Source: Polyangiales bacterium (GTDB lineage: Bacteria > Myxococcota_A > Polyangia > Polyangiales > Ga0077539). Taken from it: DNA of 64,000 nucleotides. Numbering within the stretch: position 1 is the first letter of the stretch; each line of letters opens with the position of its first letter. The notes below the pieces were generated by a model. The model was given only the letters and a program-made list of their open reading frames with translations. It was not told where the DNA came from and did not search any database. The position numbers were made by a program, and so were the translations under genes. This document shows, in pieces, positions 7,535 through 38,513 of the stretch. The DNA is taken from positions 64,001 to 128,000 of the forward strand of contig JBGARZ010000023.1 in assembly GCA_044229975.1 (NCBI GenBank), read 5' to 3'.

Positions 7535-9088
7535 TCAATGGGAGTGCCCGTGCGCGGGAACGGCACCGCCCGAGGCCGCGAGCTTCACCGACCACGCGCC
7601 CCGCGTGACGACGCGTTCGCCCGTGCGCACCCCGTCGGTCACGGCGACATAGCCGCGGTCGGAGGGGCCAAGCCGCACCGCACGGCGCTCGAAGGACTCG
7701 CCCTCGACCTGCACGAAGACCACACGATGGCTGCCGTCGTCCACGATCGCTCCGACGGGCACGGCGACGGCCTGGGTCGGCTCGCCGACGAGGAGGTGGG
7801 CGGTGACGAAGGCGCCGAGCGGGAGGCGCGCGCCCGGGTTTTCCACGGCGAAGAGGGTGGTCATCGTGCGCGAGGTGGGGTCGATGCGGTGGTCGTTCCC
7901 GAGGAACGCATCGGCGCCGAGCTCGACGGTCTGCCCGTGCCCGGGGAGCTCGAACCACGCGCCGCGCAGGTGCTCGACCCGACCGGCGTCGGCCTCGGGC
8001 ACGCGCGCGTCGAGCCAGAGCCGCGTGAGGTCGGCGACATGGAAGAGGGGCGCTCCGGCCTCGACGAAGGCGCCCGGCGCGACCTCGACCTCGACGAGCG
8101 TTCCGGCGAGCGGGGCGCGCACCTGGATGTTCCCCGTGCCGCCGCGGTTGCGGGTCTGCTCGACGCTCTGGAACTGCGCCCGCCGACGCTCGGCCGCGGC
8201 TAGCGCGGCGCGGGCCTCCTCCTCGACGTGCGTCGCTTCGACGACGCGGTGTTCGGGGACGGCGCCCTCGGCCCGCAGGGCGTCGAGGCGGGCGCGTTCG
8301 TGCGTGGCCCGCGCGAGGTCGAGGCGCGCGCTGGTGACGGCGAGGTCGATCGACGCTCGGTCCGATGCCTCCAGCCGAGGCACGAGCAGCGCGAGCGGGG
8401 CCTCCACGGCGACCGCCTCGCCGATGCGCGGGAACGTCGCGCCGACCCGCACTACCCGCCCCGCGGCAGGAGCCGCGACGATGACGTCGCCGTCACCCCG
8501 CGCGCGCAGCGTGCCGGTGACCGCGAGGGAGGGCCGGAAGGGACGCTCGGTCGCAGCCTCGGTCGCGAACTCCGTCTGCCACTGCTGCTCCTTGAGGAAG
8601 GAGATCCGTCCGGCGTGCTCGCGCTCGCTGGGTGTGGACCGCCGCGCGGCCTCCACGGACTCGAACACCTGCACGTCGCCGAGGTCGTGCGTGACCGTAC
8701 CGTTGGCCCACTGGACCTCCACGAGAAGACGACGCGCACCCGCTGCGGCTGGGATCGCGACGGGGTGGAAGATGCCGGGCACCTCGGCGTGCTCCGTCGA
8801 GAAGCGTTCCTCCGACGGGCCGCCGCGCAAGACGATCGTCACCCGACCGGCGCCCAGGGCGGAGAAGTCCGCGAGGCGCGTGACGTGCGCGGCGAAGGGC
8901 GAGGGGCGCCCGCGAACGAGGGCGCGCAGCTCGACGAAGAGCTCGGTCCGGTCCGTCCAGCTCGTGAAGGAGATCGTGGGAGGTGAGGCGGCCGTGGAGG
9001 CCGCGGTTGCCGCGTCGGGCCGATCGGCGCTCCCGAGCCCACCGCACGCGGTGATCATGGCGAGCAGGAGCAGGCTCCGGGGCTTCAT
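7535..9088 (-). CDS. RND periplasmic adaptor (MFP), lipoprotein
   Basis: Lipobox ITAC, ISFLKEQQW, VRAPLAG, FERRAVRLG, C-terminal HGHSH. Confidence 0.85.
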   Translation of the reverse strand: MKPRSLLLLAMITACGGLGSADRPDAATAASTAASPPTISFTSWTDRTELFVELRALVRGRPSPFAAHVTRLADFSALGAGRVTIVLRGGPSEERFSTEHAEVPGIFHPVAIPAAAGARRLLVEVQWANGTVTHDLGDVQVFESVEAARRSTPSEREHAGRISFLKEQQWQTEFATEAATERPFRPSLAVTGTLRARGDGDVIVAAPAAGRVVRVGATFPRIGEAVAVEAPLALLVPRLEASDRASIDLAVTSARLDLARATHERARLDALRAEGAVPEHRVVEATHVEEEARAALAAAERRRAQFQSVEQTRNRGGTGNIQVRAPLAGTLVEVEVAPGAFVEAGAPLFHVADLTRLWLDARVPEADAGRVEHLRGAWFELPGHGQTVELGADAFLGNDHRIDPTSRTMTTLFAVENPGARLPLGAFVTAHLLVGEPTQAVAVPVGAIVDDGSHRVVFVQVEGESFERRAVRLGPSDRGYVAVTDGVRTGERVVTRGAWSVKLAASGGAVPAHGHSH

Positions 9089-14189: not shown

Positions 14190-14669
14190 ATGAACCATCG
14201 CTCGGGCTTCGGGGCCTGCATCGCGCCGTGCCTCCTCATGGCGGCGTGCGCGTCCCGTCCTCCCGCCTCGACGCCCCCCGTGACGCAGACCAGCGGCGGC
14301 GAAGTCGTCCATCACGCCGCGGGCGCGCACCACGCGCCGGTCTTTCCGCCGGGGCCGATCGCCGAGATGTGGGACGCGCTCCGGCCGCTGACCCACGGGC
14401 GCGCGGGGTCGGTCCCCACAGAGCGCGACGGTCGCATCTGCGCTCGGGTCGATACGCTTCGTCAGCGCGCTGGCGTGCTCGCCGCAGCGCCCGTCCCGGC
14501 CGGGGCGGAGTCACGCGCCGATGCGTGGCGCGCCAGCACGACGCGGCTCGTGCGCGAGGCGGATGCGCTCGTCGCGTCGTGCGCGGACCCCACGCGCGCC
14601 GGGGCGTTCGAGCGTCTGGAGGCGCTGCATGTCACCTTTCACGAACTCACGGAGGACCTGCCCCCCTGA
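14190..14669 (+). CDS. Hypothetical lipoprotein, helical, His-containing
   Basis: RBS GGAG, lipobox MAAC, HHAAGAHH, LHVTFHEL. Confidence 0.6.
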   Translation: MNHRSGFGACIAPCLLMAACASRPPASTPPVTQTSGGEVVHHAAGAHHAPVFPPGPIAEMWDALRPLTHGRAGSVPTERDGRICARVDTLRQRAGVLAAAPVPAGAESRADAWRASTTRLVREADALVASCADPTRAGAFERLEALHVTFHELTEDLPP

Positions 14670-14766
14670 CGTTTCAGCGCCTGGTAGGCTCCCGGGCGCT
14701 CGCCCGTGCGGGTCGCGACAACGTTGTCGGGATCGTCGCGAACCCCTACCCTGCCCCATGGGTGTA

Positions 14767-15666
14767 ATGAACCCGCGCGCTCTGTTGATGCTCGCGGTCT
14801 GCCTCGGCGCCGCCGCCTGTGGCGGGGTCGCCGTCGGCAACCAGACCGCAGCGGACGTCCCTCCCGCGGACGCCGTCAGCGCGGACGCGAGGCTGGTGGA
14901 CATCCCCAGCAACGACTTGGGGCGCGCGGACGCGCCGGGGGCTGACGCGCCGTCGGTCGAGGCAGGCGTCGCGGACGCCGTCGGGGTCGAAGTGGGTCGA
15001 TCGGACGGGGCCCTCGTAGACACGAGCGCCGTCGAGGTAGGCGCGGCGAATGGTGGCGACGCGGGCACCGGCGACGTCGTGGACGCGGGCGCCAGCGATG
15101 CTGCGGTCGATGCAGACCTCCGCGCGGACGTCGCACCCGAGGCGGGGATGGACGCGGCGGGCCCCGCCGAAGCTGCCGTCTGTTCGGGTGCCCATCCGCT
15201 GGTCGATGCGGGGGCGAGGTTCTGCGGCCCGGGGCAGTGCTACTGCCCGGCGCCGGGGACGGGCGGCGACTCCTGCCTCCCGGCAGGCACGGCGGCCGCG
15301 TGCTGCCCGGGACGCTCGGTGGTTTGCACGGCCAGCGACGCAGGGGCGGCCTGCCCGGCGGGCACGCACCCGCTCCTCGACGGGGGCGCGCGGTTCTGCG
15401 CCGTGGGGAGTTGCTACTGCCCGTCGCCTGGGATCAACGGCGACGCGTGCCTTCCGGCGGGCGCGGGGGCAGCGTGTTGCCCGGGGCGTTCCGTGGTGTG
15501 CGCGAGCGAAGACGCGGGGGTGACGTGCCCCGCGGCGACGCACCCGCTCGTCGATGGGGGCGCGCGGTTCTGCGCCCCGGGAAGCTGTTACTGCCCGTCG
15601 AGCGACGCGTGCCGCCCAGTGGCGGTCGCGCGGATGTGCTGCCCGACCGCGGTGATCTGCGACTGA
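14767..15666 (+). CDS. Lipoprotein with acidic low-complexity stalk and three 8-Cys repeats
   Basis: Lipobox AAAC, D/A/V-rich linker, then 3 copies of C..HPL(V/L)DxGARFCxxGxCYCP...C...CCP...C. Confidence 0.7.
   Translation: MNPRALLMLAVCLGAAACGGVAVGNQTAADVPPADAVSADARLVDIPSNDLGRADAPGADAPSVEAGVADAVGVEVGRSDGALVDTSAVEVGAANGGDAGTGDVVDAGASDAAVDADLRADVAPEAGMDAAGPAEAAVCSGAHPLVDAGARFCGPGQCYCPAPGTGGDSCLPAGTAAACCPGRSVVCTASDAGAACPAGTHPLLDGGARFCAVGSCYCPSPGINGDACLPAGAGAACCPGRSVVCASEDAGVTCPAATHPLVDGGARFCAPGSCYCPSSDACRPVAVARMCCPTAVICD
15181..15660 (+). repeat. Three tandem intragenic Cys-rich repeats
   Basis: Near-identical DNA units encoding HPL.D.GARFC...CYCP (e.g. gcgcggttctgc...tactgcccg). Confidence 0.85.
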
Positions 15667-15830: not shown

Positions 15831-17570
15831 TCAGGGCGCGACGAAGCGCACGCGCGGGCGCACCCGGAGCGGCGTCCCGTCGAGCGAGACGAGCACGCGC
15901 GCGCTGCCCGCAAACGTCGGCGCCACCAGCGCGCGCCGCGTCCTGCCAGACGGCTCGACGACCGCGGGTCCCGTCCACGCGCAGGCCCCGCTGCACTCGA
16001 TGGCCGCGGTCCTGGCTCCGGCGGCGGCCGGATCGACGATCACCTCCACCTCCGACACGCCGTCCGCCGGCACGACCCGCCGCGCGACCTCGACGGCGCT
16101 CGGTTCGATCACGGTCGTGTAGCGGCCCGCCTCCGCCGACACCGTCTGGCGCAGGCCGCTCGGCCACTCGACCGTCACGTCCGCACGTTCCTGCTGTCCG
16201 ACCGCTAGGACCACTCCGCGGTCGTGCTCACCGCCCATCGACGACTGTCCGCCGGCCACGACGACCAGGGGCGGCCGGGCGCCGTTCAGCGACACCCGCG
16301 CTCCCGCTGCTTCGGCGGACGACACCGCCCCTCTCAGGCGGAGCCCGACCCAGCGGCCGCGCGGTTCGAGACGGTTGCGCAGGACGACGAGGCCCCGCGA
16401 AGGGTCCCCTGAGGTCGCGAGGCAGTCCGGCTGCCCGTTGAGCGAGAAGTCCCCGCACGCGAGGCCATGGAACTGAATCGTGGCGTCGAGCACGCGGGGG
16501 GTGACGCAGCCGTAGGTGCCGTCCTTCTGATTGACGTACAGCGTGGCGGGCGCGGGGCCTCCGTTCTCTTCGGTGAGCGAGAGCACGAGCAGGTCGCTCC
16601 AGCCGTCGAGGTCGGCGTCCTGCGTTGCGCACCCCCAGGCGAACGAGCCCTCCGGTGAGGAGAGGAGGGCCGCGTTGGCGACCGACGGGAGCGAGCGCCC
16701 GCCGCTTCCGTGCAGCAGGACGTTGGTGTCGATGACGCCGCTGACGAAGTAGTCCATGCGCCCGTCGCGGTCGAAGTCGAGCGGGCACAGCCCCATGGGG
16801 TGGGCGTCGGCGAAGTCGTCCGAGACGCTCGCATCCCGCTCGAACGTGGGCTCGTCGGAGGGACGGCCCCAGTTCAACGACCCCTGGTCGAAGTCTGCGA
16901 CGACGAACAGCTCGCGGTAGCCGTCGCCGTCTACGTCGTCGAAGAACGTGCCGTAGCCCATGTAGAGGCCGTCGCGCGGGGCGAACGAGGGCGTGCGGTC
17001 CACGAAGCGGCCGTCGCCCCACGCGGTGAGCAGGACCGCGGGCGACTCGCGGCGCGCGTTGTAGGAGACCGCGAGGTCGGTCAGGCCGTCGAGATCGACG
17101 TCCGTCGCGAGGAGCTGGGTGGGTTGGCCACGCGTCGCGGGCGCGACCACCGTGCCCGGTCCGAAGCGGCACCCGCCGAGGCCTCGGTGCCACTGCACGC
17201 CGGGGCCCGCCACCACCAGGTCACCCTCGCCGTCCGCGTCGAGGTCCACGAAGGTTCCCGCCGAGGTCGTGCTCGGGATGGGCGCCTCCAGATCGAGCAG
17301 GTCGAAGCCGCCCTCCGCGCGTGCGACGAACACCCGGCGCCCGTTCATCACGTCGGGGCGGCCGTCCCCCGAGCAGTCGCCCACCGCGACGAAGGTCGAT
17401 GGCCCACCGCGACCTTCCAGGTCCACCTGGATTCGGCCGGGGATCTCGACCTCGGGGCATTGGTTCGTGCAGCTCGCGAGGAGTGCGCCCGCGCCGGCCA
17501 GTTGGCCCGCAAGCGCGAGGACGCTGCGAGAGTTCGCGGGTCCCCGCTTCACGGCTCGGAGGGGGCTCAC
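15831..17570 (-). CDS. CRTAC1-like FG-GAP repeat + ASPIC/UnbV domain lipoprotein
   Basis: Repeated DxDxDGxxDL motifs, VVLRN, GARVSL...VEWPSG (ASPIC/UnbV), lipobox LASC. GTG start overlaps the stop of the upstream gene. Confidence 0.8.
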   Translation of the reverse strand: MSPLRAVKRGPANSRSVLALAGQLAGAGALLASCTNQCPEVEIPGRIQVDLEGRGGPSTFVAVGDCSGDGRPDVMNGRRVFVARAEGGFDLLDLEAPIPSTTSAGTFVDLDADGEGDLVVAGPGVQWHRGLGGCRFGPGTVVAPATRGQPTQLLATDVDLDGLTDLAVSYNARRESPAVLLTAWGDGRFVDRTPSFAPRDGLYMGYGTFFDDVDGDGYRELFVVADFDQGSLNWGRPSDEPTFERDASVSDDFADAHPMGLCPLDFDRDGRMDYFVSGVIDTNVLLHGSGGRSLPSVANAALLSSPEGSFAWGCATQDADLDGWSDLLVLSLTEENGGPAPATLYVNQKDGTYGCVTPRVLDATIQFHGLACGDFSLNGQPDCLATSGDPSRGLVVLRNRLEPRGRWVGLRLRGAVSSAEAAGARVSLNGARPPLVVVAGGQSSMGGEHDRGVVLAVGQQERADVTVEWPSGLRQTVSAEAGRYTTVIEPSAVEVARRVVPADGVSEVEVIVDPAAAGARTAAIECSGACAWTGPAVVEPSGRTRRALVAPTFAGSARVLVSLDGTPLRVRPRVRFVAP

Positions 17571-18148
17571 GCCGTCGCTCTCGCCCGGGTCCAGACCCAC
17601 GCCCCCGCGCTCACCGCCACGGCGCCGCCGAGGAGCCCGGCGAACATGCCCAGGGCCTCGCCCAGGAAGAGCCCGCTGCACCGCACCGAGCCGATCGACA
17701 CCACGCCCAGCAGCATCCCGACGCCGGCGCGCGCGCGCTGCCCGCCGTCGCCGCGGCGCGGGAGGAGCGCCGCCATCACCACGCCGAGCGCGAGCCCGGC
17801 GAGGGCGCAGGTGCCGGGGCGGGCGCAGCAGTTCTCGCAGACCATCATCCCGGGCGGGCAGCACGGGCGCAGCAGGGACATCGGGAGCAGGAGCGCCGCG
17901 AGGCCGCCCAGAAGGCCCACCTGCGCGCCCCGTAGCCACCACCCCCGGCGCCAGCCGAGAAAGGTCCACGCGAGGACCACCAGCGCCAGGGTGAGGGGCC
18001 GGAGGGCGACGCCGGCCACACGCGCGGCGAGCACCGACAGGCCGAGGACGATCAGCGCGCGCACGAGCCCGTCCCGGGCGAGGCCCCACTCGTAGGCCCG
18101 GCGGACGCGCGCTTCGAGGGACGGCGGGGCGGTCAAATCAGGGGTCAC
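17567..18148 (-). CDS. Multi-TM membrane protein with Cys cluster, putative anti-sigma factor
   Basis: Several TMs, RRAYEWG, loop RPCCPPGMMVCENCCARPGTC. Overlaps the ECF sigma stop. Confidence 0.6.
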   Translation of the reverse strand: MTPDLTAPPSLEARVRRAYEWGLARDGLVRALIVLGLSVLAARVAGVALRPLTLALVVLAWTFLGWRRGWWLRGAQVGLLGGLAALLLPMSLLRPCCPPGMMVCENCCARPGTCALAGLALGVVMAALLPRRGDGGQRARAGVGMLLGVVSIGSVRCSGLFLGEALGMFAGLLGGAVAVSAGAWVWTRARATA

Positions 18149-18675
18149 GGGTCACCTCCCAGGAGGGCGCGGAGCCGGGCGTAGGCGCGGGACAGGCGTT
18201 TGCGGTGCGTGGCGGGCGCGATCGGCGGGGGCGCCCCCTCCCCGAGCAGGACGGCAATGGCCTCGGCCGAGGTCGGGTCGAGCGCGTCCACGCTCCCCTG
18301 GAGCGCGCGACGGAGCTCGCGCTCGGCGAGCGCGTCGTCCGCCGCGGCCTCGGGGCTCGGGTGGTGCTCCGGGACGGCGCCGGCGTCGTGCCGGGTGCGA
18401 CGAAGCTCGGCGCGGACCTCGTTGGCCACCACGGCGTAGAACCACGGCAGCGCCGGTCGCCCGGGGGTGAACGAGGCCGCGCGGGTGAAGAGCTTGACCA
18501 TGGCGGCCTGGGCGACCTCGTCGGCGCGCGCGGGCCCGAGGCGCCGGGCCGCCACCCGCAACGCGCGCGGGTGCAGCGCGCGGAACAGGGGCGTGAAGGC
18601 CTCGCGCTCGCCCTCGCTCACGCGCGCCATGAGGTCGTCGAGCTCGGCCTCCGAGGCTTCGCGGGTCGGAGGCAC
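18145..18675 (-). CDS. ECF RNA polymerase sigma factor
   Basis: LMARVSEGEREAFTPLF, ADEVAQAAMVKLF, PWFYAVVANE, RKRLSRAYARLR. Confidence 0.85.
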   Translation of the reverse strand: MPPTREASEAELDDLMARVSEGEREAFTPLFRALHPRALRVAARRLGPARADEVAQAAMVKLFTRAASFTPGRPALPWFYAVVANEVRAELRRTRHDAGAVPEHHPSPEAAADDALAERELRRALQGSVDALDPTSAEAIAVLLGEGAPPPIAPATHRKRLSRAYARLRALLGGDP

Positions 18676-18687
18676 GCGGGCGTCGGG

Positions 18688-18870
18688 TCAGCCCGCGCGG
18701 TGGCGGCCCTGGCAGCAGGGCGAGCCGGGATGGCAGCAGGGCGAGCCGGGGTAGCAGCAGTCGCCGGCGCCCCGGGCGGTGCGAACGGCGGTGACCGTCG
18801 CCCCGAGGCCCGTGGCGAGGGAGAGGGCCCCGAGGATCATCAGGGTCCGGGGGGAGAGCAGCTTCATCAT
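18688..18870 (-). CDS. Small secreted Cys-rich peptide with CCxPGSP repeats
   Basis: RBS GGAGG, signal-like N-terminus, DCCYPGSPCCHPGSPCCQG encoded by 21-nt repeats. First gene of the ECF operon. Confidence 0.75.
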   Translation of the reverse strand: MMKLLSPRTLMILGALSLATGLGATVTAVRTARGAGDCCYPGSPCCHPGSPCCQGRHRAG

Positions 18871-18894
18871 GGGTAGAGACCTCCTGTCCCCCTG

Positions 18895-18921
18895 CTAGCC
18901 GTTCGGGCGGCGGCCGTGACC
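18895..18921 (-). promoter_or_regulatory. ECF-type promoter GGTCAC-N17-CTAG (copy 1)
   Basis: Minus-strand GGTCAC 18921-16 and CTAG 18898-95, upstream of the peptide-sigma operon. Confidence 0.7.
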
Positions 18922-18961: not shown

Positions 18962-19507
18962 CTACGTCGCCGGGGCGCAGGTGCAGTCGGCGCACCCGTC
19001 GTCCGCGCAGGACCCGCAGCAGGCCTGCACCCGCGCGCGCAGCGCCTCGCGCGCCCGGAAGACCCGCACGGCGGCGTTGTTCGCGGTGATGCCCTCGGCC
19101 TCGGCGAAGTCCTTCACGCTCTGCCCGGCAACGGTCACCTGCCGGAGCGCCGCCGCGTACTCGGGCTTCATCGCGTCCGCCAGCCGCCCCACGCACGCGC
19201 AGGTGGTCGGCGCGAGGGCCGCCACCGGCGGCGCCTCCGGCTCGTCCAGCTCCGCGGCCAGGGCGTCGAGCGCGCGGCCGTGGCTGGCGTCCCGGCGCCG
19301 GCGGTCGATCACCGCGTTGCGCAGGATCCGGTAGAACCAGGCGCGCGACGACTCGTCCTGCCGGAGCGAGGCGCCGTGGGTCATGCTGCGGGCGTAGGCG
19401 TCCTGGAGGATGTCCTCGGCCGCCGCGCGGTCGCCGAGCCGGCGCTCCAGGAAGGCGAGGAAGCTCGAACGCGCGGCGAGCAGCGACTCGGTGACGTGGG
19501 CGTCCAT
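18962..19507 (-). CDS. corE: CorE-like metal-responsive ECF sigma factor with Cys-rich C-terminal domain
   Basis: AEDILQDAY, WFYRILRNAVIDRRR, CAC between regions 2 and 4, C-terminus CCGSCADDGCADCTC. Lies downstream of a Cu-ATPase. Confidence 0.8.
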   Translation of the reverse strand: MDAHVTESLLAARSSFLAFLERRLGDRAAAEDILQDAYARSMTHGASLRQDESSRAWFYRILRNAVIDRRRRDASHGRALDALAAELDEPEAPPVAALAPTTCACVGRLADAMKPEYAAALRQVTVAGQSVKDFAEAEGITANNAAVRVFRAREALRARVQACCGSCADDGCADCTCAPAT

Positions 19508-19551: not shown

Positions 19552-21846
19552 TCACGGCGACCACCGCCGCAGCCGCAGCGAGTTGAGGAGCACCGAGACG
19601 CTCGACAGCGACATCGCCGCGCTCGCGAAGACCGGCGAGAGCGACCAGCCCGTCACGGGCTCGAGCAGCCCCGCCGCGAGGGGGATGCCGACGAGGTTGT
19701 AGACGAAGGCCCAGAAGAGGTTCTGCCGGATCGTGCGCAGCGTGGCCCGCGCGAGCGCGAGCGCCGTCGGCACCGCCCCGACGCCGCCCCGCAGGATCGT
19801 CACGTCCGCGGCGGCCGCTGCGACGTCCGCGCCGCCGCCCATCGCCACGCCGAGGTCGGCCGCGGCTAGCGCGGGCGCGTCGTTCACGCCGTCGCCCACC
19901 ATCGCCACGGTGCGCCCCGCCGCGCGCAGCCGCGCCACCAGCGCGGCCTTCTCCTCGGGGCGCACTTCCGCATGCACCTCGCTCACGCCCGCGGCGCGCG
20001 CGACCGTCAGCGCCGTCGCCCACCGGTCGCCCGTCGCCATCGCCACGGACACGCCCATCGCCGTCAACGCGGCCACGGTCGCGGCGGCCTCGGGGCGCAC
20101 CGTGTCGGCCACCGTCACGAGGCCCGCCAGGGCGCCGTCGATGGCCACGAACACGGGCGTCTCGCCCCGGTCCGCGGCCGCGGCCGCCGCGGGCTCCAGC
20201 GCGTCGGCGGCGACCCCCTGCGACGCCAGCCAGCGGGTGGTGCCGACGCACACGAGCGACGTGCCGACGCGGGCCTGCACGCCGCCGCCCGGGGTCGCCG
20301 TGAACTCCGTCGCGGCGACGGCGGTCAGGCCCCGCGCGGCGGCGCCCGCGACGATGGCGCGCGCCACGGGGTGTTCGCTCCCCGCCTCCGCGGCGGCCGC
20401 CAGCGCGAGCAGCTCGTCCTCGCCCCTCCCGCCCGCGGGGACCACCCGCGCGAGGGCCATCCGGCCCAGGGTGAGGGTGCCCGTCTTGTCGAAGAGCACC
20501 TGGTCGATCTTCGAGGCGCGCTCCAGGGCCTCGCCGCCCTTCACCAGCAGCCCGAGGGCGGCCGCGCGGCTCGTGCCCACGGCGACGGCCGCGGGCGTGG
20601 CGAGCCCGAGCGCGCAGGGGCAGGCGATCACCAGCACCGCGACGAAGTGCTCGACCGCGGCGGCGAGTCCGTCGGGCCCGCGCGGGAGCACCATCCACGC
20701 GGCGAAGGTGAGTACGGCGAGCGCGACTACCGCCGGCACGAACACCGCGCTCACCCGGTCGGCGAGGCGGGCGATGGGCGCGCGCGTGCCCTGGGCCTCG
20801 GAGACGGCGTCCACGATGCGCGCAACGGCCGACTCGGCGCCCCGGCGCGTCACCTCGATCACGAGGCTGCCGCCCTCGACCAGCGTCCCGCCCTGCACGG
20901 GGTCGCCGGGCCCGCGCTCCACGGGCACGCTCTCGCCGGTGAGCATCGACTCGTCCACGGCGGCCTGACCCTCCACGACCGTCCCGTCGGTCGGGACGCG
21001 CTGCCCGGGGCGCACGCGCACGCGGTCGCCCGGGAGCAGCGACCCCACCGTCACCTCGAGCTCAACCCCGCCCCGCAGGCGCGTCGCGCTCGGCGGCTGG
21101 AGGGCCACGAGGCCGCGCACCGCGTCCCCCAGGCGCCGGCGCGCGCGCCGCTCCAGGGCCTTGCCCAGCAGCATGAACGCGACGATCGCGCCGGCCGCCT
21201 CGAAGTACACCGGGACGTGACCGTGCTCGCCGTGCGGAAGCAGTCGCGGCACGAAGGTCACCGCCGCCGACCAGCCCCAGGCGGTGAGGGCGCCGAGCGC
21301 GACGAGGACGTTCATGTCGGCGCTCCGGTGGCGCAGCGCCGCGGCCGCGAGGCGCAGGAAGCGGCGCCCGGGGCCGAAGACCACCGCCGTCGCCAGCGCG
21401 AGCTGGAGGTAGCGCCCGGCGGCGCCCGCGGTCCCCGGGATCGCGCCGTGCGACATCCCGACGACCAGGAGCGGCACGGCCAGCGCCGCAGCCACGATCA
21501 GGTCGCGCCGGTCGCGGCGGGCGTCGGACTCTTCGGCGGCGTCGATGCGCGCGAGGCGCGACGCTGCGTCGGGCGGGGCCTCGCCCGCCGCGGGCACGTC
21601 GGGGACCTCGTAGCCCGCCCCGCGGATCGCCTCGGCGAGGGCCTCCGGGGCCGTCGCGGCGGGGTCGTAGTCGATCGTCGCATGCTGGGTGGCGAGGTTC
21701 ACCCGCGCGTCGAGCACGCCGGGCGCGCGCCCGAGCACGCGCTCGATGCGGCCGACGCAGGCCGCGCAGGTCATGCCGAGCACCGCGAGCTGCACGCGCG
21801 TCGGGTCGTCGGGAGGGGACAGGGGGTTCGCGAGCGAGGATGTCAT
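19552..21846 (-). CDS. copA: Cu(I)-translocating P1B-type ATPase
   Basis: GMTCAAC HMA domain, [27 protein letters not shown] and MSLSS. Confidence 0.93.
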   Translation of the reverse strand: MTSSLANPLSPPDDPTRVQLAVLGMTCAACVGRIERVLGRAPGVLDARVNLATQHATIDYDPAATAPEALAEAIRGAGYEVPDVPAAGEAPPDAASRLARIDAAEESDARRDRRDLIVAAALAVPLLVVGMSHGAIPGTAGAAGRYLQLALATAVVFGPGRRFLRLAAAALRHRSADMNVLVALGALTAWGWSAAVTFVPRLLPHGEHGHVPVYFEAAGAIVAFMLLGKALERRARRRLGDAVRGLVALQPPSATRLRGGVELEVTVGSLLPGDRVRVRPGQRVPTDGTVVEGQAAVDESMLTGESVPVERGPGDPVQGGTLVEGGSLVIEVTRRGAESAVARIVDAVSEAQGTRAPIARLADRVSAVFVPAVVALAVLTFAAWMVLPRGPDGLAAAVEHFVAVLVIACPCALGLATPAAVAVGTSRAAALGLLVKGGEALERASKIDQVLFDKTGTLTLGRMALARVVPAGGRGEDELLALAAAAEAGSEHPVARAIVAGAAARGLTAVAATEFTATPGGGVQARVGTSLVCVGTTRWLASQGVAADALEPAAAAAADRGETPVFVAIDGALAGLVTVADTVRPEAAATVAALTAMGVSVAMATGDRWATALTVARAAGVSEVHAEVRPEEKAALVARLRAAGRTVAMVGDGVNDAPALAAADLGVAMGGGADVAAAAADVTILRGGVGAVPTALALARATLRTIRQNLFWAFVYNLVGIPLAAGLLEPVTGWSLSPVFASAAMSLSSVSVLLNSLRLRRWSP

Positions 21847-21874
21847 GGGGGTTCGGCTCCGGTTCGATCGGGCC

Positions 21875-21900
21875 GACGCAGCCGGGCGCGGCGGATTACA
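21875..21900 (-). promoter_or_regulatory. ECF-type promoter TGTAA-N17-CGTC (copy 2)
   Basis: Minus-strand TGTAA 21900-896 and CGTC 21878-75, upstream of copA-corE. Confidence 0.7.
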
Positions 21901-22005
21901 TCCCTCGTTCGCAGAGGATCGGCGGGTCGTTCTGGATCCCGGCACGCCGGCGCCCCTCAGTGCATGGGAGACCGCGGGGTCGTGAGCTGTCCGATGGACA
22001 GTCCT

Positions 22006-25000
22006 TCATGCCGGCGCGGCTCCTTCCGTCTCGGGCGGTCCGTCGATGCCCCCGCGACGAATCTGTCCCCTGCGCCAGACCGCGTAGGCGGCGGGCAGCA
22101 CGAGAAGCGTGAGCGCCAGACACGACACCAGGCCGCCCACGACCGGAGCGGCGATGCGCGCGGAGACGTCGGCGCCCGGGCCCGCCTCCCAGAGCAGGGG
22201 CAAGAGGCCCAGCACCGTGCTGGCCACCGACATCACGATGGGCCGTACCCGCGACGAAGCCCCCTCCACGACGGCTTCATCCACGTCGCTCACGTCCAGC
22301 GAAGCCTTGTCCTTCTGCCGCAACGAGACCGCCTGATCGAGGAACTCGACCATGAGGATGCCGGTCTCGGAGGCGGTTCCGATGACGGCGATGAGGCCCA
22401 CCCACACGGCGGTCGAGACGTTGTAGTGCCGCAGGTGGAGCAGCCACACGCTGCCGATCAATGCGAAGGGCAGGCTGGTGAGGACCAGGCCCGTCTGGGC
22501 CCAACCCCGCATGGCTCGACGAAGAAGGAAGACGACCAGCAGGAGGGTAAGCGGCACCACCCAGGCCATGCGCGCCTGCATCTCCGCCATGAACTCGTAC
22601 TGACCCGTCCATTGCAGCCGGTAGCCCGGAGGCAGTGACAACTGGCGCGCGACGACGGCCCTCGCGTCGCTCACCCAGCCGCCGAGGTCGCGCTGCGAGG
22701 CGTCGATGTCGGCGAAGACGTAGCCGACCAGGACGCCGTTCTCGTCCTTGATCATCGGCGGGCCGGTCACGACCCGCACGTCCGCGATCGCCCCGAGCGG
22801 AACCGTCGCCCCGGACGGTCGCCAGCGATCGCTCGGATCAGGCGCGGATGCGGCCGGTGCGCCCATCGCCGGTGCCGGGCTCGCGCCACCCGGTGCCCCG
22901 ACCCGCATCCCGGTGCGACCTGCGCCGCCTCCCATGCCGCTGCCACCCATGGCCCCCTGGGCGCTGTTGCCCGCCGGGGATGAGCCGGCGCCCGCGCCGC
23001 CGGCCTCCGCCTCGCCCACCGGCTCCGAGCTGGCCACCGGGATGAGGATGCGGCGCAGCGAGTCGGGATCGGCCCGGTAGTCCGCGGCGTAGCGCAGGTT
23101 GATCGAGAACCTCGACCGGCCTGCGATCACGGTCGAGACCGCCATGCCCCCGACGGCCGCTTCGACGACGTCGTGGACGTCCCGCACGCTCAGTCCGTAG
23201 CGGGCGATGGCCTCCCGGTCGGGGACGACGTCGATGTACTCGCGGCCCGTCTGGCGCTCCGCGAAGGTGCTGCGCGTTCCCGGGACGCCGCGCAGCATCC
23301 CTTCGAGGGCGATGGAGAGGCGCTCGATCTCGGCGAGGTCGGGCCCGAAGACCTTGATGCCAACGGGTGTCCGCACGCCGGTCGTCAGCATGTCGATGCG
23401 CGTCCGAATCGGCGGCGCGATCGCCATCTGATAGCCGGGCATCCGCAGCGCCGCGTCCAGGTCGCGGCTGAGCTCTTCGAGCGTGCGCGGACGCTGCTCA
23501 GGCCAGATCCATCGGAGGGGAACCCGCAGCCACTCGGGCCCTCCGCTGTACCACCGCGCGGTATACCGCCGCGGCCACGCGCTCGTGGGGCGCAGGACCA
23601 CGACGCTCTCGATCATGTCGAGCTGCGCCGGGTCGGTGGCCGTCTCCGCCCGCCCGGCCTTGCCATGCACCGACGACACCTCCCGGAAGGATCGGATGAT
23701 CCGATCCTGGGCCGTGAGCGCCCGGCGCGCCTCCTCGATGGAGATGCCCGGAAAGGTCGTGGGCATGACCAGGAGAGAGCCCTCGTCGAGGGGCGGCATG
23801 AACTCCGAGCCGAGGCGTAGGGCCACGGGCACCGTCGCCGCGAGCAACGCGGCCGCGCCGAGGAGGACGAACCATCGCGCCCGGACGGCGAGGCGCACCA
23901 CCGGCCGATACATCCGGGTCAGGACGCGGCTGACGGGGTTCTCGTCGTCCCGGCGAAACCTGCCCCGCATCACGAGCAACATGAGGGGCGGCACCAGCGT
24001 CACGGAGAGCAGCGCCGCCGCGAAGGTGGCGAAGGTGTGCGTGAGGACGAGCGGGCGGAACAGCCGCCCGGCCTGGCCGGTCAGGCTGAGGAGCGGGACG
24101 AAGCTCACGGTGACCAGGAGGAGGGAGAAGAACGTGGGGCGTCCGACCTCCTTGAGCGCGTCGAGGATGACGCGTCGCCGGTCCGCGCCCGCGGCCGCGA
24201 GCGAGAGCCGGCGCGCGCCGTTCTCGACGAAGGTCGTGGAGGCGTCCTCAAGCTCCCCCACCGCGATCGCGATCCCGGCGAGGGACATGATGTTGATCGA
24301 CATGCCGACGTGGAACGTCGGGATGAAGGTGAGCAGGACCGCGAGCGGAATGACGACGACGGCGACGAAGGCCGACCGGGCGCTGAACAGGAAGAAGAGG
24401 CAGATGAGCGCGACGATGACGCCCTCCTGGATGAGCGTATTTCTCAGCGTCGCCACGGAGCCGCGAATCAGGTGCGAGCGGTCGTAGGTCGGCACGAGGC
24501 GGACGCCCTCGGGCAGGCTCAGCCGCGCGATCTCGGCCTTGATGGCGTCGTTGACCTGGAGGGCGTTGGAGCCGATGCGCATGACGACGATGCCGCCGAC
24601 GGCCTCGCCGCGGCCGTCGAAGTCCGCGGCGCCCCGGCGGATCTCCGGGCCGAACTGGACGCGCGCGACGTCGCGCAGCCGGATGGGGTTGCCGCCCGCG
24701 CCCACGCTCACGACGCTCGCTTCGAGGTCGGCGAGGGTCCGCACGTACCCGCGGCCGCGCAGGACGTACTCGCGCCCGGCGACCTCCAGCACGCGCGCCC
24801 CCACCTCGGAGTTGGCGTCCCGCGCGGCGCGGGTCACGTCGGCCAGTGAGAGTCCGTAGGCGGCGAGGCGGTTCGGATCGAGGACGATCTGGTACTGGCG
24901 CTCGAAGCCGCCGACCGTCGCGACCTCGGCGACGCCGGAGACCGCCTGGAGCGTCGGGCGGATCGTGAAGTCCTGGAGCTCACGGAGCTGCGCGAGGTCG

Positions 25001-25452
25001 CGTCGCCCGGAGGTGTCCTCGATCACGTATTGGAACACCCAGCCGACGCCGGTCGCGTCGGGTCCGAGGATGGGTGCGACGTCCGGGGGCAGGAGCCGCT
25101 GCACGCGCCCGAGCTGCTCGAGGACCCGGGTGCGCGCCCAGTAGATGTCGGTGTCGTCCTCGAAGATCACGTAGATGAAGCTCATCCCGAACATCGAGTA
25201 GCCGCGCACCGTCCGGGCGTGGGGCGTGCTCTGGAGCGCGCGCACGAGGGGGTAGGTGATCTGGTCCTCGACGAGGTCGGGGCTCCGGCCCATCCAGTCG
25301 GTGAACACGATGACCTGCGGATCGGAGAGGTCTGGGATCGCGTCGAGGGGCGTCCGCCTCATGGCGGTGACGGCCCACACGACGAGGAGGGCCATCACGC
25401 CGAAGACGACCCACGGGCGCTTCGCGGACAGCTCGATGATGCGCTCGACCAC
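22006..25452 (-). CDS. cusA: CusA-type Cu/Ag RND efflux permease
   Basis: PLDAIPDLSDPQVI, VEDQITYPL, LGPDATGVGW, GSEFMPPLDEG, DMIES, RIDMLTTG. Confidence 0.92.
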   Translation of the reverse strand: MVERIIELSAKRPWVVFGVMALLVVWAVTAMRRTPLDAIPDLSDPQVIVFTDWMGRSPDLVEDQITYPLVRALQSTPHARTVRGYSMFGMSFIYVIFEDDTDIYWARTRVLEQLGRVQRLLPPDVAPILGPDATGVGWVFQYVIEDTSGRRDLAQLRELQDFTIRPTLQAVSGVAEVATVGGFERQYQIVLDPNRLAAYGLSLADVTRAARDANSEVGARVLEVAGREYVLRGRGYVRTLADLEASVVSVGAGGNPIRLRDVARVQFGPEIRRGAADFDGRGEAVGGIVVMRIGSNALQVNDAIKAEIARLSLPEGVRLVPTYDRSHLIRGSVATLRNTLIQEGVIVALICLFFLFSARSAFVAVVVIPLAVLLTFIPTFHVGMSINIMSLAGIAIAVGELEDASTTFVENGARRLSLAAAGADRRRVILDALKEVGRPTFFSLLLVTVSFVPLLSLTGQAGRLFRPLVLTHTFATFAAALLSVTLVPPLMLLVMRGRFRRDDENPVSRVLTRMYRPVVRLAVRARWFVLLGAAALLAATVPVALRLGSEFMPPLDEGSLLVMPTTFPGISIEEARRALTAQDRIIRSFREVSSVHGKAGRAETATDPAQLDMIESVVVLRPTSAWPRRYTARWYSGGPEWLRVPLRWIWPEQRPRTLEELSRDLDAALRMPGYQMAIAPPIRTRIDMLTTGVRTPVGIKVFGPDLAEIERLSIALEGMLRGVPGTRSTFAERQTGREYIDVVPDREAIARYGLSVRDVHDVVEAAVGGMAVSTVIAGRSRFSINLRYAADYRADPDSLRRILIPVASSEPVGEAEAGGAGAGSSPAGNSAQGAMGGSGMGGGAGRTGMRVGAPGGASPAPAMGAPAASAPDPSDRWRPSGATVPLGAIADVRVVTGPPMIKDENGVLVGYVFADIDASQRDLGGWVSDARAVVARQLSLPPGYRLQWTGQYEFMAEMQARMAWVVPLTLLLVVFLLRRAMRGWAQTGLVLTSLPFALIGSVWLLHLRHYNVSTAVWVGLIAVIGTASETGILMVEFLDQAVSLRQKDKASLDVSDVDEAVVEGASSRVRPIVMSVASTVLGLLPLLWEAGPGADVSARIAAPVVGGLVSCLALTLLVLPAAYAVWRRGQIRRGGIDGPPETEGAAPA

Positions 25453-25463
25453 GGCGGCGGCTC

Positions 25464-26795
25464 CTAGTGGCCCGCGTGAGCCGAGCCCGGCGGTGGGCTC
25501 GGAGCGGGCTCGGGACGGGCGCCGCGATCGCTCGGTGTGGCGCCGGCCGCCGGCGGCGTCTGTCCGCCGTGGGCGTGACCCGTGCCGCCCCCCGAGGCGC
25601 GCAGACGGCTCTCCGAGTCGATCAGGAACACCCCCGAAGCAACGATCGACTCCCCTTCGCTCAGCCCCTCGCGCACCTCCACGCGGTCGTCGAGCCGGGT
25701 CCCCAGCGTGACGGCTCGGGGCACGAAGCGCCCGTCACTCCCGACGACGAAGACGTGCTGGGTCTCGCCGGTGTCCACGACGGCGTCCCGCGGGACCGTC
25801 AGCGCCCCGTGAGCGCTCACCTGGAAGTTGGCTTCACCGTAGAGGCCGGGGCGCAGGGAGCCGTCGTCGTTCGGGACCACGAAGCGCGCGCGCAAGGTCC
25901 GCGTGCGTTCGGTGAGGGTGGGGTAGAGGAAGTCGATTCGCGCCTCGAAGGGTGCCCGGCCCGAGGCCGCGAACTCGAGCCGCGCCGGCGTGTCCCGCTG
26001 AATCGCGGGGATGTCGCCTTCGGGGACCTCGGCCAGCACCCAGACGCGGGAGAGGTCCGCGATCGTGAGCAGCTCCGTCGAGGGGTCCACCGCGGTCCCG
26101 ACGGCGATCCCGCGGTGGAGCACCACGCCCGTGCGGGGAGCCACCACGGTGACGGTGCGCAGGGGGCGGCCCGTGCTCTCGACCTGGGCGAGCTCCGCCG
26201 CGGTCATCCCGAGCACCGCGAGGCGGCTGCGCGTGGCCGCGAGGAGGCCCTGCGTAGCCGCCGCAGTGGTCGGGTGGGCGAGGTTCTGGCGCAGCGCGAT
26301 GAGCTCGTTCTGCGAGGCCAGCAGCTCCTGCGAGAAGATGGCGGCGAGCGGTGCGCCGCGCGTGACGCGCTGCCCGGTGGTGTTGACGTAGAGCCGCTCG
26401 ATCCACCCCGCCACGCGGGTGTGAACGTGCGAGACCCGCGACTCGTCGAGCGCCACCGTCGCGACGGCGCGCACGGGCCGACCGATGTCCTCCCTCGCGA
26501 CGCGGGCGACGCGCACGCCGATCGCGTCGAGCTGCCCCCGGGGGACCGCCACCGGCACGCGCCCCGGTACGGTGTGGGCCGCGTGCGGATCGACGGCCTC
26601 GTTCCCGTCGAGGGCGAGTGGCGCGGCGGTGCGCCCTCCGGGCGGATTCGCCGGCGCCATCTCGTGGTGCAGCGAGAAGGGCCAGGCCCGGCGGAGGTGC
26701 TGCGTGATGAGCGACCCCACCATGAGGACGACCACGGCGAGCGTGGCCACCGAGAGCGTGCGCCATCCCCGCGCCACCAGCGGGTGAGCGATCAT
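25464..26795 (-). CDS. cusB: CusB-like RND periplasmic adaptor
   Basis: GWIERLYVN, FSQELLASQNE, IADLSRVWV, FLIDSES, His-containing tail. Confidence 0.88.
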   Translation of the reverse strand: MIAHPLVARGWRTLSVATLAVVVLMVGSLITQHLRRAWPFSLHHEMAPANPPGGRTAAPLALDGNEAVDPHAAHTVPGRVPVAVPRGQLDAIGVRVARVAREDIGRPVRAVATVALDESRVSHVHTRVAGWIERLYVNTTGQRVTRGAPLAAIFSQELLASQNELIALRQNLAHPTTAAATQGLLAATRSRLAVLGMTAAELAQVESTGRPLRTVTVVAPRTGVVLHRGIAVGTAVDPSTELLTIADLSRVWVLAEVPEGDIPAIQRDTPARLEFAASGRAPFEARIDFLYPTLTERTRTLRARFVVPNDDGSLRPGLYGEANFQVSAHGALTVPRDAVVDTGETQHVFVVGSDGRFVPRAVTLGTRLDDRVEVREGLSEGESIVASGVFLIDSESRLRASGGGTGHAHGGQTPPAAGATPSDRGARPEPAPSPPPGSAHAGH

Positions 26796-28081
26796 CGCGG
26801 CCCGCCGCCGAAGCGCCCGACGGTGCGCTCCAGCCGTGCGCGGACGACGCCGACATCGACCTCCGCCATCACCCGCTCCTCCTGCGTCATGCGCAGCGAC
26901 ACGATGGCTTCGATCACCGCGACGAGCGGCGCCTGGCCGGCGGCGTAGGCCGCGATCGTCGCCCGCAGGGTCTGGACCGCCTGCGGCTCGACCTCGTCGC
27001 GCAGGGCGGCCGACCGCACGCGGGCGGCGTCGAGCGAGCCGAGGGCGGCGCGCACCTCGCCTTCGATCATCGTGCGCGCCCCGCGCAGCTCCGCGTCTGC
27101 CATCGTCCCCATGGCGCGGGCCTCGGCGACGCCCGCCGCGAGCCGCGCGCGCCAGATCGGAACGGTCACCCCCACCATCACCATCACCCCCGGGCCGTCG
27201 CTCATGGTGGTCGAGGCCCCCGCGCGCACGAAGGCCATCGGCGCGTACATCGCGCGCATCGCCTCGACCTCCGAGCCGTACTGGCGCCGCGAGGCCTCGA
27301 CCGACGCGAGCTCGGGCCGCGAGCGCAGGGCCTCGGCGACCAGCGCCTCCGCGGCCGCCGGGGGCTCGTCGGCCGCGGCGGCGAGCTCCGGCACCGGGAG
27401 GTCGCCCGCGCGGCCGAGGGCGGCGTTGAGCATCGCCTCGGCGGCGACCGTCTGGCCCCGCAGCGCGGCCCGCCGGGTGGCCTGCCGGCGCGTCTCCGTG
27501 TCGGCGCGCAGGACGTCCGACTGCGGCGCCGCGCCAGCGGCGTAGCGCGCGGTGGCGATGCGGGTGAGGTCCCCGGCGAGCGCGACCTGGGCGTCGAGCA
27601 CCGCGGCCATCCGACGCAGGCCCGCGAGCATGTGGAAGGCCCGGAGCGCCTCCGCCGTCACGTCGAGCACGGTCTCGCCCGCCCGCAGGCGTCGCGCGTC
27701 GGCGGCGGACTGGGCCGCGCGCCGACGGGCGCCCAGGACGCCGGAGAGCGGGAACTCCTGCTGCACCATCACGCTCCCGTCGAAGCCCATGCCGGAGAAG
27801 GGGATGTGGTCCGCCGACACCATCACCATGGGGTCGGGCAGCGATCCGACGATGGCCGGTCGCTGTCCGAGCGCCCGCGCCTCGGCCAGCGCGGCCGTGA
27901 TCTCCGCCCGGTGCGCGCCCGCGTATTGGACCACGCCGACGACATCGAGCGGGCTCGGCAGCGTGTCGCGAGGCTGGCCGTGGGCGCCCTCCGTCGCGAG
28001 GAGCGTGATCACCGCGGCGATGAGTCCGGCCCACGCCGTCGCGACGCGCCGATCACGGGCGCCTTGAGGTTGGCCATTCAC
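26792..28081 (-). CDS. TolC/CusC family outer membrane protein
   Basis: GTG start with GGAGG RBS, LPDPMV, QEFPL, TVPIW. First gene of the cusCBA-like operon. Confidence 0.85.
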   Translation of the reverse strand: MNGQPQGARDRRVATAWAGLIAAVITLLATEGAHGQPRDTLPSPLDVVGVVQYAGAHRAEITAALAEARALGQRPAIVGSLPDPMVMVSADHIPFSGMGFDGSVMVQQEFPLSGVLGARRRAAQSAADARRLRAGETVLDVTAEALRAFHMLAGLRRMAAVLDAQVALAGDLTRIATARYAAGAAPQSDVLRADTETRRQATRRAALRGQTVAAEAMLNAALGRAGDLPVPELAAAADEPPAAAEALVAEALRSRPELASVEASRRQYGSEVEAMRAMYAPMAFVRAGASTTMSDGPGVMVMVGVTVPIWRARLAAGVAEARAMGTMADAELRGARTMIEGEVRAALGSLDAARVRSAALRDEVEPQAVQTLRATIAAYAAGQAPLVAVIEAIVSLRMTQEERVMAEVDVGVVRARLERTVGRFGGGPR

Positions 28082-28310
28082 GGGAGATCCTCCCTCGAGC
28101 GTTCGATGGGGATCACTCCCCCGCGTTGCGCCGATGACGTCCCCTTGAGCAACCCACGCGCCACGTCCATGGGCGCGGAGGAATCGGTGGAACTTCGCCT
28201 GCCCGGAACTCGATCTCGGTGTCCGGCGCACAAGCTGCGCTCGGGCGAACGGATTGCACCATCGACGACCGCCGGACGTCCGCTCGGGCGCGGGGCGGAG
28301 ATTCGCGCGG

Positions 28311-28336
28311 TGTAATGCCGATGGCACTGGTCCGTC
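28311..28336 (+). promoter_or_regulatory. ECF-type promoter TGTAA-N17-CGTC (copy 3)
   Basis: TGTAA 28311-15 and CGTC 28333-36, upstream of the YHS-CopA gene. Confidence 0.7.
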
Positions 28337-28431
28337 TGCGGCTCCAGAGACGGAAGCCGGTGACAGATCGCAGCGACGGGGCACGCCGCCTGCTCTGCGG
28401 ACTGCCGGGCGACCGCCCCGCGAGGCACTCC

Positions 28432-36430: not shown

Positions 36431-36457
36431 CTAGTCGCCCGAACCGAAGGTGTGACC
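36431..36457 (-). promoter_or_regulatory. ECF-type promoter GGTCAC-N17-CTAG (copy 2)
   Basis: Minus-strand GGTCAC 36457-52 and CTAG 36434-31, upstream of the MCO-plastocyanin operon. Confidence 0.7.
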
Positions 36458-37992: not shown

Positions 37993-38019
37993 GGTCACGG
38001 ACGGGATGGACACGGCTAG
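37993..38019 (+). promoter_or_regulatory. ECF-type promoter GGTCAC-N17-CTAG (copy 3)
   Basis: GGTCAC 37993-98 and CTAG 38016-19, upstream of the MNIO precursor. Confidence 0.7.
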
Positions 38020-38087: not shown

Positions 38088-38513
38088 ATGAACAACGAAA
38101 CCCGCGCGAAGCTTCTGGCGATGGTGTCTGCCGCTCTGGGCGGCGCGGCCCTTGAGGGCTGCGCGAGTAATCCGCCAGCGATGGCGCAGCCCCCGACGAG
38201 CGCGAGCGCTCAGTCGGCCACAGGGCAGGCCGGCAGCTGCAGTGCTGCGATGGCCCAGAGCGGGAACTGCGGCGCCAACATGGGCCACGCCCCGGGGGCA
38301 GCTCCGGCGGCCCCTCAGGGGGCGGCGACTGGGCAGGCGATGAGCTGCGGACACGACGGGAACTGCGGCGCGCACATGGCCGCGCCGACCGCGCCGGCCG
38401 CTCCGGGGACGACCGCGGCGCAGCCGACTGCACCGCCCGCCCCGGCCCCCACGACTCCCGCCGCGGCACCTCCTCCCGCGGCCCCCGCTCGCCCTCACGT
38501 CCACGCCCACTGA
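38088..38513 (+). CDS. Putative MNIO RiPP precursor (lipoprotein-type, Cys repeats)
   Basis: Signal with LEGC, two ATGQAxSC...GNCGA(N/H)M units, Pro/Ala tail, HVHAH. Ends 3 nt before the DUF692 gene. Confidence 0.75.
   Translation: MNNETRAKLLAMVSAALGGAALEGCASNPPAMAQPPTSASAQSATGQAGSCSAAMAQSGNCGANMGHAPGAAPAAPQGAATGQAMSCGHDGNCGAHMAAPTAPAAPGTTAAQPTAPPAPAPTTPAAAPPPAAPARPHVHAH

Follow-up and report, generated by a model that had tools for sequence, protein, structure and literature searches.

A CC-repeat peptide heading an ECF sigma factor operon in Polyangiales: a candidate envelope metallothionein

Introduction

Why should an operon for an ECF sigma factor open with a peptide of only 60 amino acids? 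The question is raised by an open reading frame (ORF) at 18688-18870 on the reverse strand of a 64,000-nucleotide stretch of a Polyangiales contig, referred to here as the window. The window holds a metal island comprising CopA-type ATPases, CusABC-type efflux, two multicopper oxidases, HMA and cupredoxin proteins, and an MNIO with DUF2063. A preliminary description of this DNA offered three roles for the peptide, namely a periplasmic metal buffer, a ligand or competitor for the anti-sigma factor, and an in-trans substrate of the MNIO.

The peptide and its gene

The peptide gene is preceded by the Shine-Dalgarno sequence AGGAGGT (18885-18879, reverse strand) with the ATG 8 nt further on, in agreement with the strong ribosome-binding site reported earlier. 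Its product consists of a basic N-region, a hydrophobic helix that is predicted to serve as a signal peptide or anchor, a CC-x5-CC-x5-CC segment and a His-containing tail. Residues 37-57 read DCCYPGSPCCHPGSPCCQGRH, and six cysteines fall within 24 residues counted from D37. The three CC pairs had been ascribed to 21-nt repeats. The pairs are present, but only two full units encoding CCxPGSP exist (18718-18759, reverse strand); these units, 18759-18739 and 18738-18718, are identical at 19 of 21 positions, and only TGCTGC, the CC codons, is left of the third. A paralog on contig C31 of the same genome differs by six synonymous and four non-synonymous codon changes.

The AF2 model of the peptide has a helix over residues 7-34 and then no regular structure (pLDDT 64, pTM 0.29); over the cysteine part, pLDDT is 55-67 without a confident fold. 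The peptide is thereby small and Cys-rich, with clustered cysteines and, in this low-confidence model, no regular apo structure, as is typical of metallothioneins. All family members compared begin with a basic N-region and an uncharged stretch of 20-22 residues. By a crude rule, a small-x-Ala site follows the hydrophobic stretch in 44 of 72 Myxococcota, 20 of 22 planctomycete and 6 of 7 Bacteroidota members. For the Myxococcota peptide, export to the periplasmic side is predicted and cleavage is doubtful. Of the earlier claim that it is secreted, the signal-like N-terminus stands while cleavage, judged by the crude rule only, is uncertain.

Family and distribution

The ORF is real and conserved. 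Twenty close homologs were found, and at E<=0.001 the family extends to 362 clusters at 50% identity; its repeat module is the seven-residue CCxPGxP. The closest named records are from Myxococcales/Deltaproteobacteria MAGs. Sixty-four peptide loci from GTDB were collected: 28 Myxococcota-type (two labelled Proteobacteria, and including L063 from the unpublished genome G023), 25 planctomycete-type (two labelled Alcaligenaceae), 8 Bacteroidota and 3 Gemmatimonadota. The last three, in which the match is the C-terminal tail of a larger protein, were set aside. At about 7900-8080 in these loci (L055, L057, L061), ACCYPGSPCCGPDC ends a larger protein, presumably an arsenite methyltransferase, encoded downstream of an ArsR gene.

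The window peptide has no match in Pfam or NCBIfam. For 72 Myxococcota members these databases gave scattered weak matches only and the PDB none, and no member matched a described bacterial metallothionein family in any of the three. Three unnamed clusters of the ESM Atlas resemble the peptide at 0.76-0.78 and serve as leads only.

Exactly six cysteines occur in 72 of 72 aligned Myxococcota members, arranged as CC-x5-CC-x5-CC in 71; C38, C39, C45, C46 and C53 are invariant, a histidine follows the last CC in 71 of 72, and 32-40 residues separate the initial Met from the first CC. Outside the Myxococcota, the 22 planctomycete members counted (of 25 loci) have 10-31 cysteines and 4-15 CC pairs, and the seven from Bacteroidota (of eight loci) have 3-6 CC pairs. 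Three homologs are fused to metal domains, either HMA (P0024, L022) or YHS (P0068), and HMBD genes neighbour the peptide in three Bacteroidota loci.

The periplasm is oxidising, and cysteines there could form disulfides instead of binding metal. With their even and fixed number in all Myxococcota members, the cysteines might hold together a disulfide-folded mini-protein with a non-metal role in envelope stress. The range of 3 to 15 CC pairs elsewhere, the fusions to metal domains and an AF2 model without a confident fold over the cysteine part speak against such a protein, and we consider it quite improbable.

The sigma factor and the Cys-loop membrane protein

The next gene, starting 12 nt beyond the peptide stop (18145-18675, reverse strand), encodes an ECF sigma factor of 176 amino acids (PF04542, Sigma70_r2, E 5.9e-10), whose best NCBIfam match, PRK05602, is far below cut-off. 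Its stop is overlapped by a gene (17567-18148, reverse strand) for a membrane protein of 193 amino acids with six predicted helices (AF2 pLDDT 74), which we infer to be the anti-sigma factor. This protein carries the loop PCCPPGMMVCENCCARPGTC, giving it a CC..CC..C loop, and a further cysteine at the end of helix 5; C97, C108, C114 and C157 are invariant in 42 rows of its alignment. By the positive-inside rule, which is based on charge, the loop and the helix-5 cysteine are predicted to face the periplasm. None of 17 sequences of the putative anti-sigma matches NrsF (PF06532) at E<=1, and Foldseek of the model against the PDB returned no match at E<=0.001. An FG-GAP/ASPIC protein follows the sensor in the window (15831-17570, reverse strand) and is absent from other cassettes.

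The preliminary description had proposed looking for the peptide beside homologous ECF/anti-sigma pairs, and it does recur there: the ECF follows it in 26 of 28 Myxococcota-type loci and in 0 of 36 other loci, while two Myxococcota loci (L063, L064) have the peptide without ECF and anti-sigma. The association was also read in reverse, from metagenome loci chosen by the ECF alone. Among the best 80 of 203 such loci, 62 have 300 nt or more of upstream sequence, and of these all encode the peptide and 61 show the promoter motif GTCAC-N16-18-CTA; the remaining 18 are shorter. One short locus (L137, 288 nt upstream) has the motif and no peptide. Profile searches matched the anti-sigma in at least 12 of 301 genomes (11 candidates scored per genome) and the ECF in at least 15 of 401. 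The peptide is a fixed partner of this ECF clade in Myxococcota.

Linkage in 62 of 62 loci would also be expected of a membrane-anchored microprotein that binds the anti-sigma, by helix packing and through its CC motifs, joined to those of the sensor by a common metal or mixed disulfides, and so tunes the switch. The fixed cysteines, the narrow spacing from Met to first CC and the lower share of small-x-Ala sites in Myxococcota (by the crude rule) agree with a partner of this kind. So does the pairing of CC peptides with CC-loop sensors and of CxC/CPC peptides mostly with C-x4-C-x3-C-x3-C sensors, a comparison of two clades that are not independent. A CCPPG...CC loop similar to the peptide had been noted in the anti-sigma; a CC loop is indeed there, but the likeness consists mostly of CC pairs beside a membrane helix. 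The peptide matches sensor helix 3 and loop only weakly as a profile (probability 22%), with a score that 0 of 40 block shuffles but 4 of 40 shuffles with fixed CC pairs reach, and homology of the two was rejected as unproven on the latter count. Further against the microprotein are L063, L064 and 33 planctomycete and Bacteroidota loci, all without this ECF, and the sister-clade loci L099 and L108, which lack a Cys peptide. On balance we judge it decidedly unlikely. Since those 33 loci lack this ECF, binding the anti-sigma cannot be the general role of the family; the ligand proposed earlier could apply to the Myxococcota subfamily, whose rigid six-cysteine pattern appears to suit a peptide with a definite fold or partner more than a loose sponge.

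Upstream of the peptide, and outside the conserved cassette, lies a CorE-like ECF with a CxC linker and a Cys-rich C-tail (18962-19507, reverse strand), which is found in only 3 of 28 Myxococcota-type loci. Read-through from copA-corE cannot be what the peptide depends on, since in three close relatives (L001-L003) a Fe/Mn SOD-like gene separates its promoter from the CorE-like sigma.

Promoter motif and regulon

A pattern scan placed the predicted ECF promoter, GGTCAC-N17-CTAG, before the peptide operon (18895-18921, reverse strand), before the multicopper oxidase (34952-36376) and cupredoxin-lipoprotein genes (36431-36457, reverse strand; also in the C31 island) and before the MNIO operon (37993-38019, forward strand). 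The motif shared by peptide and MNIO operons, as claimed in the preliminary description, is therefore confirmed and gains a third site. Because the pattern was written from the window's own sites, its chance figure of 0.22 is flattered. The 10 Mb genome holds six sites, all 24-68 nt before peptide, multicopper-oxidase or MNIO-precursor operons, and the two copies of the island account for all of them. Other spacer lengths, from 8 to 30 nt between GGTCAC and CTAG, give 0-4 sites each.

The second copy of much of the island lies on C31 of the same genome (G000, about 63000-109200, 65-91% DNA identity) and includes paralogs of the peptide, ECF, sensor, CorE-like sigma, CopA and MNIO operon. A 19-residue segment is duplicated in the CopA encoded there. 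The window also encodes, at 14521-15666 on the forward strand, a lipoprotein-like ORF of 381 amino acids with three Cys-rich repeats (C..GARFC..G.CYC) and no Pfam match.

In 24 of the 28 Myxococcota-type loci, G[GT]TCAC is found no more than 90 nt from the peptide start, and the other four have near versions. A stricter pattern found 43 sites in 24 genomes, no more than a reversed-pattern control, and so the position of the motif alone, not its count, is used here; CTAG is probably depleted in these genomes. Thirty of the 43 sites were fetched. The peptide lies behind 10 of them, a multicopper oxidase behind 4, an MNIO precursor behind 3 and a small metal-motif protein (HMBD-, YHS-, CopZ-like or His-rich, classed by motif reading) behind 6; nothing related follows the other 7.

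CorE was considered as the owner of GGTCAC/CTAG and rejected. The -35 element of CorE holds AAC (PMC3107203, PMC4937300), and only 3 of 28 loci have a CorE-like neighbour; the most likely reader of the motif is therefore the downstream ECF, an arrangement that would amount to autoregulation. The parts of the ECF classification covered (PMC7826278 and its supplement) list no group with a GGTCAC/CTAG promoter. TGTCAC -35 elements are given there for ECF41, 103, 250 and 288, and these were discarded as home groups on account of their different -10 elements and regulators. Literature searches on the motif strings, with most subscription journals and bioRxiv supplements outside their coverage, found nothing relevant.

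RNA-library contigs from related strains cover the peptide and the ECF start, although such contigs carry no strand information and may include DNA. One contig of 497 nt (X1) spans 18382-18878 with nine differences to the window, and pieces from a second study (X7) likewise end at 18878, 17 nt beyond CTAG, a weak hint of transcription from the motif. Over 19600-28400 the same two runs yielded short pieces only, and missing contig cover there proves nothing.

Other peptides in the same slot

A sister ECF clade, which has C-x4-C-x3-C-x3-C sensors, uses the same promoter motif. In 8 of its 9 loci with enough upstream DNA, the motif is accompanied by a short exported peptide of CxC/CPC type that is unrelated to the CC peptide; among the ten loci of that set, L203 has neither motif nor peptide and the short L195 shows a CPC tail. 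Eight of ten further, more distant loci have an exported Cys peptide (L103 being the same locus as L199, and L100 and L101 coming from one genus), while L099 has a 142-aa protein with two cysteines and L108 has none. L097-L106 and L194-L202 include several unrelated CxC/CPC peptides, 38-99 amino acids long, of which some (L100, L101) are very metallothionein-like. At L108 (G000, C31 52234-53372), divergent GTCAC..CTA sites accompany the sister ECF/sensor pair, one of them before a small membrane protein with C..CC. With unrelated Cys-rich peptides in one position, what is selected for there seems to be Cys content and not a particular sequence.

Retention of Cys content would likewise suit a scavenger whose thiols are sacrificed to oxidants or electrophiles and which is governed by a Cys anti-sigma that senses redox state. 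It would be the Cys counterpart of MrpX, a Met-rich periplasmic scavenger that is under the control of SigF/NrsF in Azospira (PMC4436054); NrsF itself acts via two periplasmic cysteines (PMC3511200) that C114 and C157 match in position. The motif sites, however, precede copper and metal-handling genes, with no repair reductase among the 30 fetched, and both the HMA/YHS fusions and the CutF-like leaders described below point to metals. We regard a scavenger as unlikely, if still the foremost of the alternatives.

The MNIO operon

The MNIO operon of the window has its own probable precursor, a lipoprotein-like protein of 141 amino acids with two SC..GNCG units (38088-38513, forward strand), assigned this role by position and by the criteria of PMC12452194. 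It is followed by the MNIO (PF05114) and DUF2063 partner (38517-40081, forward strand), assigned by Pfam, with NF003818 and NF050167 as best NCBIfam matches, both below cut-off. The peptide had been proposed as an in-trans substrate of this enzyme, to be matured into a bufferin-like chelator, and co-occurrence with DUF692 had been suggested as a check. No MNIO lies in any of the 64 peptide loci, whose flanks reach up to 8 kb and are often shorter. When 50 genomes were searched for PF05114, it was found in 24 of 24 Myxococcota-type genomes (a tally that includes G023 and lacks a comparison with peptide-free Myxococcota), 1 of 8 Bacteroidota and 4 of 18 planctomycete-type; it was thus not found in 21 of 26 planctomycete and Bacteroidota genomes, with the reservation that MAGs may be incomplete. 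Fourteen of the 64 loci fall outside this search: six in genomes already included, five further planctomycete and three Gemmatimonadota.

Besides this genome, three close relatives have the promoter motif before the MNIO precursor. In 11 more distant peptide-bearing genomes it occurs within about 1.5 kb of 0 of 20 MNIO loci, and 15 of these 20, read by eye, have their own lipoprotein-like Cys precursor. With regard to bufferins, the peptide has a Sec-signal-like N-terminus (by the crude rule), cysteines and fewer than 200 residues, and its gene precedes an MNIO gene at 0 of 64 loci; stand-alone bufferin precursors do exist, many of them unlinked to an MNIO gene (PMC12452194). Neither the window peptide nor any of the 72 members matches a bufferin, DUF2282 or oxazolin model in Pfam or NCBIfam, the Buf2 HMM of PMC12452194 being covered as far as NCBIfam 20.0 contains it. 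Taken together, the shared motif, the MNIO in every Myxococcota-type genome and the existence of unlinked precursors leave the proposed substrate poorly supported against the separate loci, the dedicated precursor and motif sharing confined to close relatives, and it is the least probable reading of those weighed here.

In Polyangia (L205-L224), the gene before the MNIO mostly encodes a lipoprotein-like precursor with SCGAGTC, SSCS or CKGxNxCKG units, and MNIO substrates of undescribed types may be among these. A third close MNIO operon (G000, C19 407270-409249) has its own repeat precursor with ASCGAH units and an AAC-type TGAAACC-N16-CGTAG site instead of the GGTCAC motif.

Leader ORFs in other phyla

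None of the 33 planctomycete and Bacteroidota loci has such an ECF. In 21 of the 25 planctomycete loci and 6 of 7 from Bacteroidota (L038 is too short and was excluded), the peptide is preceded at a distance of 33-132 nt by a leader ORF that is rich in Cys and has an export-type start and a conserved, arrest-like tail. The leader pattern, which was derived from the same loci in which it was counted, occurs in 0 of 308 other called genes there (0 of 232 and 0 of 76) and in 0 of 28 Myxococcota-type peptides. In L014-L060 the leaders end in xHPP, PP..LHCVWLC or HHxLRC, directly before the peptide genes. They have no match to the DUF2946 model, and weak matches to Pfam DUF6660 in 2 of 22 (E 0.06 and 0.6). 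Three Bacteroidota loci have multicopper oxidase and HMBD genes upstream. That two unrelated regulators of apparent metal type stand over one peptide family argues that the peptide is an effector.

A working model for the peptide

Which role accounts best for these observations? At somewhat better than even chances, the peptide buffers Cu(I) or another thiophilic metal in the envelope, in the manner of a metallothionein, and thereby damps its own Cys-loop sensor. The metal buffer of the preliminary description is favoured by the regulon content, the HMA/YHS fusions and the variable repeat number, as well as by the second, independent metal-type regulator in two other phyla. Counting against it, 7 of 30 motif sites precede unrelated genes, most Myxococcota-type loci show only the ECF beside the peptide, many cassettes lie far from any metal gene, and the slot has exceptions in L099 (142 aa, two cysteines), L108 (no peptide) and L137 (motif only).

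According to this model, metal or thiol stress would alter the periplasmic Cys loop of the membrane protein, upon which the ECF would be released. The free ECF would then transcribe the operon that encodes it and that of the multicopper oxidase, joined in this lineage alone by the MNIO/bufferin-type operon. The peptide, first in its operon, would bind metal via six thiolates and the tail histidine, and in doing so would also switch the sensor off, by competition and not by specific contact. The regulon suggests copper as the preferred metal. This is not certain, because XCCX clusters mark Cd- rather than Cu-metallothioneins in Tetrahymena (PMC4862169).

A broader and more speculative proposal, which we think more likely wrong than right, is that CCxPGxP proteins are widespread, undescribed envelope metallothioneins of three phyla under two unrelated metal-sensing schemes, one being the unclassified GGTCAC/CTAG ECF with its Cys-loop sensor and the other the CutF-like nascent-chain leaders. 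The Myxococcota peptide would stay in the membrane and exert feedback by drawing metal off a sensor with matching CC pairs.

Comparison with known systems

Described bacterial metallothioneins are few and cytosolic, while exported copper-buffering Cys peptides, the bufferins, need enzymatic modification. If our reading is true, an unmodified, exported and modular CC-repeat family of hundreds of clusters would fill a gap in the way Myxococcota, Planctomycetota and Bacteroidota deal with metals in the envelope. No paper describing such a family was found, with most subscription journals and bioRxiv supplements outside coverage. The analysis also defines an ECF clade with its likely promoter and Cys-loop sensor, none of which was found in the covered parts of the ECF classification.

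SmtA/BmtA and MymT (PMC7558416) resemble the peptide in being very small and Cys-rich, with no predicted apo fold and a metal-stress context. They are described in the cytosolic pool, whereas the peptide has an export-type N-terminus and a seven-residue CCxPGxP module without sequence match to them. MrpX of Azospira suillum (PMC4436054) offers a parallel as a small periplasmic sacrificial peptide of a SigF/NrsF-type regulon, but it is Met-rich and comes with a repair reductase; here there are Cys pairs and copper-type co-targets. The leaders of CutF and CruR (PMC9973294, PMC9426467) share with those of planctomycetes and Bacteroidota an export-type N-terminus, many cysteines, a conserved C-terminal tail and a gap of mostly less than 120 nt; the latter differ in having no DUF2946 match and, in many planctomycetes, tails without PP. 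The window has no leader of this type, its role being taken by the ECF. CorE (ECF238) of Myxococcus xanthus has its counterpart in the CorE-like sigma that adjoins the cassette upstream in the island. CorE needs no anti-sigma and has AAC in its -35 element (PMC3107203, PMC4937300); as 25 of 28 cassettes have no CorE-like sigma, GGTCAC/CTAG is unlikely to be read by it.

The nearest parallel is SigF-NrsF (ECF16) with the bufferins of Caulobacter, in which an ECF and a six-helix anti-sigma with periplasmic cysteines (PMC3511200, PMC12452194) control small exported Cys peptides and an MNIO/DUF2063 operon in metal stress (PMC12452194; see also bioRxiv 10.1101/2024.03.18.585515). The window cassette has the ECF16 layout of an anti-sigma at +1 with six membrane helices and conserved periplasmic cysteines, its topology being predicted. 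C131 and C181 of NrsF face the periplasm (PMC3511200), and C97, C108, C114 and C157 can be likened to them by their predicted periplasmic side. The sensor here is not PF06532/DUF1109 (0 of 17) and has extra CC pairs; the promoter is GGTCAC/CTAG (conserved as GTCAC-N16-18-CTA) and not GTAACC-N16-CGAA; and the peptide has CC repeats, no bufferin-model match and no MNIO linkage. The cassette would work like SigF/NrsF with an exported Cys chelator, yet by the tests run it stands outside the NrsF and bufferin families.
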